Source of the DNA: Escherichia coli
GTDB lineage: Bacteria > Pseudomonadota > Gammaproteobacteria > Enterobacterales > Enterobacteriaceae
DNA length: 64,000 bases
Strand: one strand, 5' to 3'
Assembly (NCBI RefSeq): GCF_003991155.1
Contig: NZ_CP031293.1
The notes under the pieces are model-generated. The model saw nothing but the letters and a program-made list of their open reading frames with translations, was not told the DNA's origin and did not search any database. Shown piece by piece: positions 22,284 through 22,315 of this stretch. Within the stretch, counting starts at the first letter, position 1; each line of letters starts with the position of its first letter. The translations under genes and the position numbers were made by a program.

Positions 22284-22315
22284 TTTGTACACCGTCCGGC
22301 ACTCAATCGCCAAAA

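Follow-up and report, generated by a model that had tools for sequence, protein, structure and literature searches.

The setA-less sgrR-sgrS-leuD locus of an Escherichia coli strain is typical of lineages outside phylogroups A and B1

The SgrS locus and its junction with leuD

We analysed a stretch of 64,000 nucleotides of Escherichia coli DNA, which we call the window. In this stretch leuA, leuB, leuC and leuD all lie on the plus strand, and a short junction separates leuD from sgrS, which is encoded on the opposite strand and diverges from sgrR (Table 1). SgrS matches the RF00534 model over its entire length (positions 1-232 of 232, untruncated) with 225.4 bits and an E-value of 5e-64, the gathering score of the model being 37. 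All the features of an SgrS locus that we tested are present: the divergent sgrR, the sgrT reading frame, the base-pairing region, and a Rho-independent terminator with its U-tract. The terminator hairpin consists of 8 bp, 6 of them G-C, closed by a 7-nt loop; on its 3' side it is followed by TTTTTTCTTTTT, and the tract UUUUUUCUUUUU spans 22323..22312. A 7-bp inverted repeat (AATCGCC / GGCGATT, at 22305-22311 and 22350-22356) surrounds the terminator and the U-tract. Folding predicts that it makes an outer stem, which could form only in transcripts that extend past the terminator. Other setA-less Escherichia largely keep this repeat, which has no evident counterpart in Citrobacter; it may be due to chance.

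Table 1. Features of the sgrR-sgrS-leuD locus, with coordinates given as positions in the window
Feature	Coordinates	Strand	Evidence or remark
leuD, last gene of leuABCD	21678..22283	+	annotation of near-identical genome; tblastn 98% to K-12 LeuD
junction, 33 bp	22284..22316	.	remainder where setA and most of both its spacers are absent
sgrS, 227-nt dual-function small RNA, complete	22317..22543	-	RF00534
allele block tied to presence/absence of setA	22317..22436	-	private-site scan, sliding distances, segment tree, SgrS alignment
SgrS intrinsic terminator hairpin	22324..22346	-	terminator scan and folds of both strands
sgrT, 43 codons, intact	22391..22522	-	annotated WP_001248768.1; same protein in CFT073 and IAI39
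sgrR-sgrS divergent promoter region	22544..22610	.	distance to K-12 0.014 over about 22449-22587
sgrR, transcriptional activator of sgrS, intact, 552 codons	22611..24269	+	annotation; tblastn 97.5% to K-12 SgrR over 551 aa

A preliminary description of this DNA had stated that in K-12 sgrS is followed by setA and then by the convergent leuD, and had proposed that setA is cleanly missing here, the sgrS terminator being only about 32 bp away from the stop of leuD. Our results agree with these statements. The K-12 strain MG1655 does encode setA (b0070, 1179 bp) at this place. Homology between the window and K-12 stops at 22277 and resumes at 22318, with 40 bp of the window standing for 1261 bp of K-12, and a tblastn search of the 64-kb window with SetA gave no match with an E-value below 3. 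The absence is clean in the sense that leuD, sgrS, sgrT, and sgrR are all intact. The distance from the leuD stop is 28 bp when measured to the U-tract (at its far end), 33 bp to the 3' end of SgrS, and 40 bp to the hairpin base.

When compared with the sgrR-sgrS/sgrT-setA locus of K-12 (Vanderpool & Gottesman 2004; Sun & Vanderpool 2011; to the extent that PMC4021124 and PMC4509938 relay them), the window is alike in having a divergent sgrR, a 227-nt SgrS with sgrT, the same seed, a Rho-independent terminator, and a position between thiB and leuD. It differs in that no setA gene, nor any other gene of a SET-family MFS transporter, directly follows the sgrS terminator in the direction of sgrS, so there is no sgrS-setA read-through operon. 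It also differs in the last 120 nt of sgrS, which are of another allele with 22 fixed differences that alter the C-terminus of SgrT; the K-12-type 3' allele, the one that travels with setA, is absent from the window.

Horler & Vanderpool (2009, PMC2760817) found that the SgrS of K-12 is 88% identical to those of CFT073 and O157, which are 99% identical to each other. The 3' segment of sgrS in the window is 1.3-2.6% away from those of Sakai and CFT073 and ~20% away from those of K-12 and IAI1. CFT073 (like IAI39) encodes an SgrT identical to that of the window, and neither CFT073 nor Sakai has setA. The window differs from CFT073 in having no IS200C in the junction (in CFT073 its transposase gene sits exactly between sgrS and leuD, at 4078-4536 of the extracted locus), and from O157:H7 in that the start codon of sgrT, mutated in the latter (PMC2760817), is not mutated here. 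From the leuD stop to the sgrS terminator, the window has the deletion junction shared by setA-less Escherichia. The window has a genuine SgrS locus, of the CFT073/O157-type haplotype, and not a K-12-type sgrS-setA operon.

Distribution of setA and age of the junction

We searched complete E. coli genomes with a query spanning the junction and found it contiguous in 2,159 out of 5,426. K-12 setA was matched in 3,241 E. coli genomes, in 3,228 of them with at least 99% identity. The two sets are complementary and together cover the 5,399 genomes that match the flanks. At low stringency, full-length setA was found in 3,239 genomes, and the best match in the other 2,182 was a 148-nt stretch of the paralogue setB with 73% identity. 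The setA-less genomes thus have no relocated or diverged setA, only the paralogue setB. The population counts and these setB-only matches serve as a proxy for the genome of the strain studied here, in which no setA copy is expected elsewhere.

These data also bear on whether setA was simply dropped from the sequence by an assembly or collapse artefact. This has nothing to recommend it beyond its being formally conceivable. Over its 64,000 nt, the window has only 3 differences from E. coli 2016C-3878 (complete chromosome NZ_CP029747.1), which is an independent genome. At least 30 genomes that were assembled independently have an identical junction, and the counts of setA and of the junction are complementary. 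The near-identity with 2016C-3878 and the 2,159 contiguous junctions show that the absence is not an artefact, the likelihood of which we regard as negligible. They also settle the proviso of the preliminary description that a corrected assembly might restore setA at this place.

Among reference strains, setA is missing from CFT073 (B2), O157:H7 Sakai (E), and IAI39 (F), and present in K-12 (A) and IAI1 (B1). This phylogroup pattern is drawn from reference strains of A, B1, B2, E, and F. The spacing between leuD and sgrR in Sakai and IAI39 closely matches that of the window, and IAI39, of phylogroup F, is the closest to the window strain among the references examined. The setA-less junction is the lineage-typical state of E. 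coli outside A/B1, and is found in ~40% of the genomes. Within E. coli, A/B1 is a derived crown group, and the setA-less arrangement has been visible in reference genomes since 2001-2002. A published reconstruction of gene gain and loss, in which the A/B1 sublineage acquired setA (González-Alba 2019, PMC6896753), has the same distribution as found here (setA in A and B1 references, absent from B2, E, and F ones, with a split of about 60:40 among our complete genomes). The lack of setA in the window is real, ordinary, and already known; the A/B1-only distribution of setA and the two SgrS alleles have both been published.

The preliminary description had implied that the strain lost a standard component of the regulon. 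This does not hold, because the setA-less junction is typical outside A/B1 and common to other Escherichia, and within this genus it is K-12 that has the unusual haplotype. A recent deletion, specific to the strain or clone and starting from a K-12-like ancestor, would explain why setA is gone with intact flanks and without a scar. Yet the same junction is found in 2,159 complete genomes spanning B2, E, and F and in three other Escherichia species, and the block at the 3' end of sgrS, which is 18-20% diverged (see below), could not result from a recent deletion in a K-12-like ancestor. Such a recent event is therefore highly improbable.

We then collected 80 species-representative loci via SgrR and located LeuD and SetA in each of them (the collection left out E. 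coli, E. fergusonii, E. marmotae, E. ruysiae, Salmonella bongori, and S. enterica subsp. enterica). In all the 76 loci from outside Escherichia, the SetA gene is directly between sgrS and leuD, or 3' of sgrS where leuD is farther away. They include loci of Citrobacter, S. enterica subsp. arizonae and diarizonae, Enterobacter, Klebsiella, Raoultella, Kluyvera, Leclercia, Lelliottia, Trabulsiella, Yokenella, Atlantibacter, and Buttiauxella. The presence of SetA in 76 out of 76 such loci indicates that the order sgrR-sgrS-setA-leuD is ancestral for Enterobacteriaceae. Two of these genes seem frameshifted, those of C. amalonaticus (~5496-6675 of its locus) and of Trabulsiella odontotermitis (5591-6653 of its locus). 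One has many stops and a length that differs by 1 bp, and the other gives a split tblastn match; they could be either pseudogenes or sequencing errors.

Only E. albertii, E. whittamii, and Escherichia sp. E1V33 lack setA among the 80 loci. In the comparison of the junction with relatives and Salmonella, which the preliminary description had suggested, the setA-less state is common in Escherichia (by which we mean these three non-coli species plus E. coli), and S. enterica subsp. arizonae and diarizonae keep setA. In the three species the spacing between leuD and sgrR is 332 bp, as in the window, and their junctions align with that of the window from end to end, with few substitutions and a 2-bp indel. 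The collinearity of the junctions across setA-less Escherichia points to a single deletion rather than to parallel losses. Independent deletions in several Escherichia lineages, for instance by means of flanking repeats, might have been considered because the intergenic region of convergent genes can be a hotspot, and because CFT073 has its IS200C at the junction. However, we found no repeats flanking setA in the setA-bearing relatives, all setA-less taxa have collinear junctions (including 25 bp of unassignable sequence and the remnant of a spacer), and all have the same linked sgrS 3' allele. Parallel deletions are most unlikely on these grounds.

The right end of the junction, GCCAAAAAG (22308-22316), resembles the sgrS-setA spacer of Citrobacter, GCCAAAACG. 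For the other ~25 bp, nothing significantly similar was found in setA-bearing relatives. We searched the 33 bp for a remnant of setA itself and discarded this possibility, because local alignments to 20 setA-bearing loci are scattered and score only 14-18, as expected by chance. Since there is no such remnant, the deletion endpoints can be placed only within the two spacers or at their edges. The comparison of the junction with the same 20 loci identified no microhomology at these endpoints. At the other side, the C-terminus of LeuD in the window (...PAFMR*) is similar to those of the outgroups, and the K-12 form (...PAFMN*) is derived.

Taken together, the window very probably carries the lineage-typical setA-less form of the Escherichia sgrR-sgrS-leuD locus, derived from one old, shared deletion. 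Starting from the ancestral order sgrR-sgrS-setA-leuD, this deletion would have removed the coding sequence of setA and most of both its spacers, keeping leuD and the sgrS terminator 33 bp apart. The resulting haplotype would then have been inherited by E. albertii, E. whittamii, E1V33, and the non-A/B1 E. coli, including the window strain.

The sgrS 3' allele and the setA cassette of K-12

The divergence between the window and K-12 is ~3% overall and rises steeply beside the indel. In the 3' ~130 nt of sgrS it reaches 0.20-0.23 between the window and K-12, against 0.05-0.06 between the window and E. albertii. Within the block 22317-22436, there are 22 fixed differences in 120 nt between the setA-bearing K-12 and IAI1, on the one hand, and all the seven setA-less Escherichia sequences, on the other. 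Elsewhere, sites private to A/B1 number 3-4 in the last ~45 bp of leuD, and there are none beyond. K-12 is 18-20% away from every setA-less Escherichia sequence in this 120-nt block, which is mostly non-coding and for which distance estimates are noisy. The block contains the base-pairing seed of SgrS, CATCATGTGTGACTGAGTATTGGTG, which is unchanged relative to K-12, and the last ~8 codons of sgrT, which end in ...WEGSHSDY in the window and in ...WDDRNSES in K-12.

The tree of this segment has one cluster gathering the setA-less sequences, at most 5.3% apart (window, IAI39, Sakai, CFT073, E. whittamii, E. albertii, and E1V33), and another with K-12, IAI1, and Escherichia sp. MOD1-EC7003. The trees of leuC, of the 5' part of leuD, and of the 5' part of sgrS with sgrR recover the species tree. 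Between setA-less species, the sgrS 3' segment diverges by ~5%, which is similar to leuC (5-6.5%) and thus fits a vertical inheritance of the deletion. The 3' end of sgrR in K-12 (23786-24266 in the window) is also peculiar, since it is 8-11% away from all other E. coli examined, including IAI1 (B1), when these are ~4-6% apart. This patch looks recombinant, specific to K-12, and unrelated to setA.

The part of K-12 that stands apart is a sharply bounded cassette of ~1.45 kb, which includes setA with the last ~45 bp of leuD on one side and the 3' 120 nt of sgrS on the other. Its setA is on a long branch, at 21-23% from Citrobacter and Salmonella, which are themselves 16-18% apart, and the overall diversity of setA is at most 1.5%. 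In MOD1-EC7003, the cassette (5452-6800 of its locus) is 0.7-1.5% diverged, and the flanking leuC and sgrR are 6-7.5% away from those of K-12. A nearly identical cassette between diverged flanks suggests that it moves between lineages by recombination. The leuD gene of MOD1-EC7003 is itself mosaic.

We searched for a donor or a close relative of K-12 SetA and found none among the 120 protein matches listed, all but one of which are E. coli SetA with 99-100% identity. The exception, at 94%, was considered as a divergent relative and rejected, because it is an ordinary K-12-type locus in which the end of the protein is altered. Using the setA of MOD1-EC7003 as a query revealed no intermediate lineage either: the 3,240 E. 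coli matches are all at 95-99% identity, the best at 98.9%.

These patterns lead us to lean slightly towards a secondary origin of the K-12 arrangement, in which an unsampled, deeply diverged donor would have supplied the ~1.45-kb cassette, re-introduced into A/B1 by homologous replacement. The chances seem about evenly balanced for the fuller scenario, where setA would have been lost once, early in Escherichia, and then restored at its exact ancestral position in A/B1 and MOD1-EC7003, overwriting the 3' 120 nt of sgrS and the C-terminus of SgrT.

An alternative without re-import is that the polymorphism is ancient, i.e., that A/B1 kept setA by vertical descent, the setA-less allele having been fixed or having spread elsewhere, which would make the K-12 arrangement ancestral. 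The two haplotypes do coalesce deeper than the splits between Escherichia species, and the distances between K-12 setA and the sampled genera are no smaller than vertical descent would predict. A sharp-edged peak of divergence is also expected around an indel that was kept for a long time while recombination eroded its flanks. However, the setA-bearing haplotype occurs only in the derived A/B1 crown group and in MOD1-EC7003, where it seems to have been transferred recently, and a diversity of at most 1.5% is shallow for a haplotype older than speciation. The published reconstruction infers a gain on the A/B1 branch (PMC6896753). We thus see long-standing polymorphism as rather unlikely, if still a serious contender. 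Early loss followed by re-import is the most economical reading, given the long branch of setA, its low diversity, the MOD1-EC7003 cassette, the placement of A/B1, and the published gain. The state of the window is common and old under re-import and ancient polymorphism alike.

Relative to what the accessible text of PMC6896753 covers, our comparisons add three propositions. First, the locus with setA is ancestral for Enterobacteriaceae. Second, the absence of setA is an old deletion common to the other Escherichia. Third, the acquisition by A/B1 would have restored setA at its original position, together with a foreign 3' end of sgrS. If this is true, what has been studied in K-12 is an SgrS and an SgrT of partly foreign origin, inherited along with a read-through cargo gene, and the laboratory arrangement of K-12 is the exception within Escherichia. 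Loss followed by restoration would then make a neat, small case of allele replacement by homologous recombination, which opens no new question.

Stress response, transcription, and other differences from K-12

The SgrR-SgrS/SgrT response should operate in this strain, because the control region is essentially identical to that of K-12 and both SgrS and SgrT are intact. From the intact parts and the biology of K-12, SgrR would activate the divergent sgrS promoter under sugar-phosphate stress. The predicted SgrS keeps the seed and an Hfq-type terminator, and would still encode SgrT. In K-12, transcription continues through the sgrS terminator into setA, so that the two genes share a transcript (Sun & Vanderpool 2011, as relayed in PMC4509938), and SetA gives a modest help in recovery under some stress conditions, its substrate in that context being unknown (PMC4509938, PMC4021124). 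In the window strain, a transcript extending past the sgrS terminator would have no cargo gene and would enter leuD in the antisense direction. The response would not include any recovery that depends on SetA, and the paralogue setB probably stays elsewhere in the genome, as it does in other such genomes. The preliminary description was thus right that the regulon differs in composition from that of K-12, but this is a known, lineage-wide difference and not the loss of one strain.

On the other strand, a terminator scan and folds of both strands found no canonical terminator after leuD. The sgrS terminator was considered as a bidirectional terminator that would also serve leuABCD, and rejected because it has no U-tract on the plus strand. 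The leu transcripts may run antisense to sgrS or be ended by Rho.

These results make K-12 unrepresentative for the SgrR/SgrS response, because ~40% of the sequenced E. coli, including the uropathogenic and enterohaemorrhagic references, are devoid of setA. The setA-less strains also have a different SgrS 3' allele and a different C-terminus of SgrT. The conclusions on the role of SetA in stress and on regulated sgrS read-through are valid only for A/B1-type strains.

The window has several other differences from K-12. A gene of 189 codons annotated as the T3SS effector EspY2 (24499-25068, minus strand) lies between sgrR and the TPP riboswitch of thiB, where K-12 has none. It is found in O157 Sakai and IAI39, and is absent from K-12, CFT073, and IAI1. 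Its DNA is 64% similar to the yabP region of K-12. It makes a second indel at the locus, with a distribution across strains unlike that of setA. Between araC and yabI (29679-31223), there is a remnant of an IS630 transposase gene with two hypothetical genes, absent from K-12 and present in IAI39. An IS621 (IS110-family) transposase gene is found between djlA and rluA (43196-44176), where K-12 has yabP/yabQ. The region between folA and apaH (52128-53466) encodes a short antitoxin of the CcdA family, a hypothetical protein, and a DUF4291 protein, none of which is in K-12. Finally, ~1 kb within lptD (46001-47000, in a gene spanning 45365-47722) is only 83-90% identical to K-12, when the neighbouring sequences are 97-100% identical, and corresponds to a strongly divergent allele segment.
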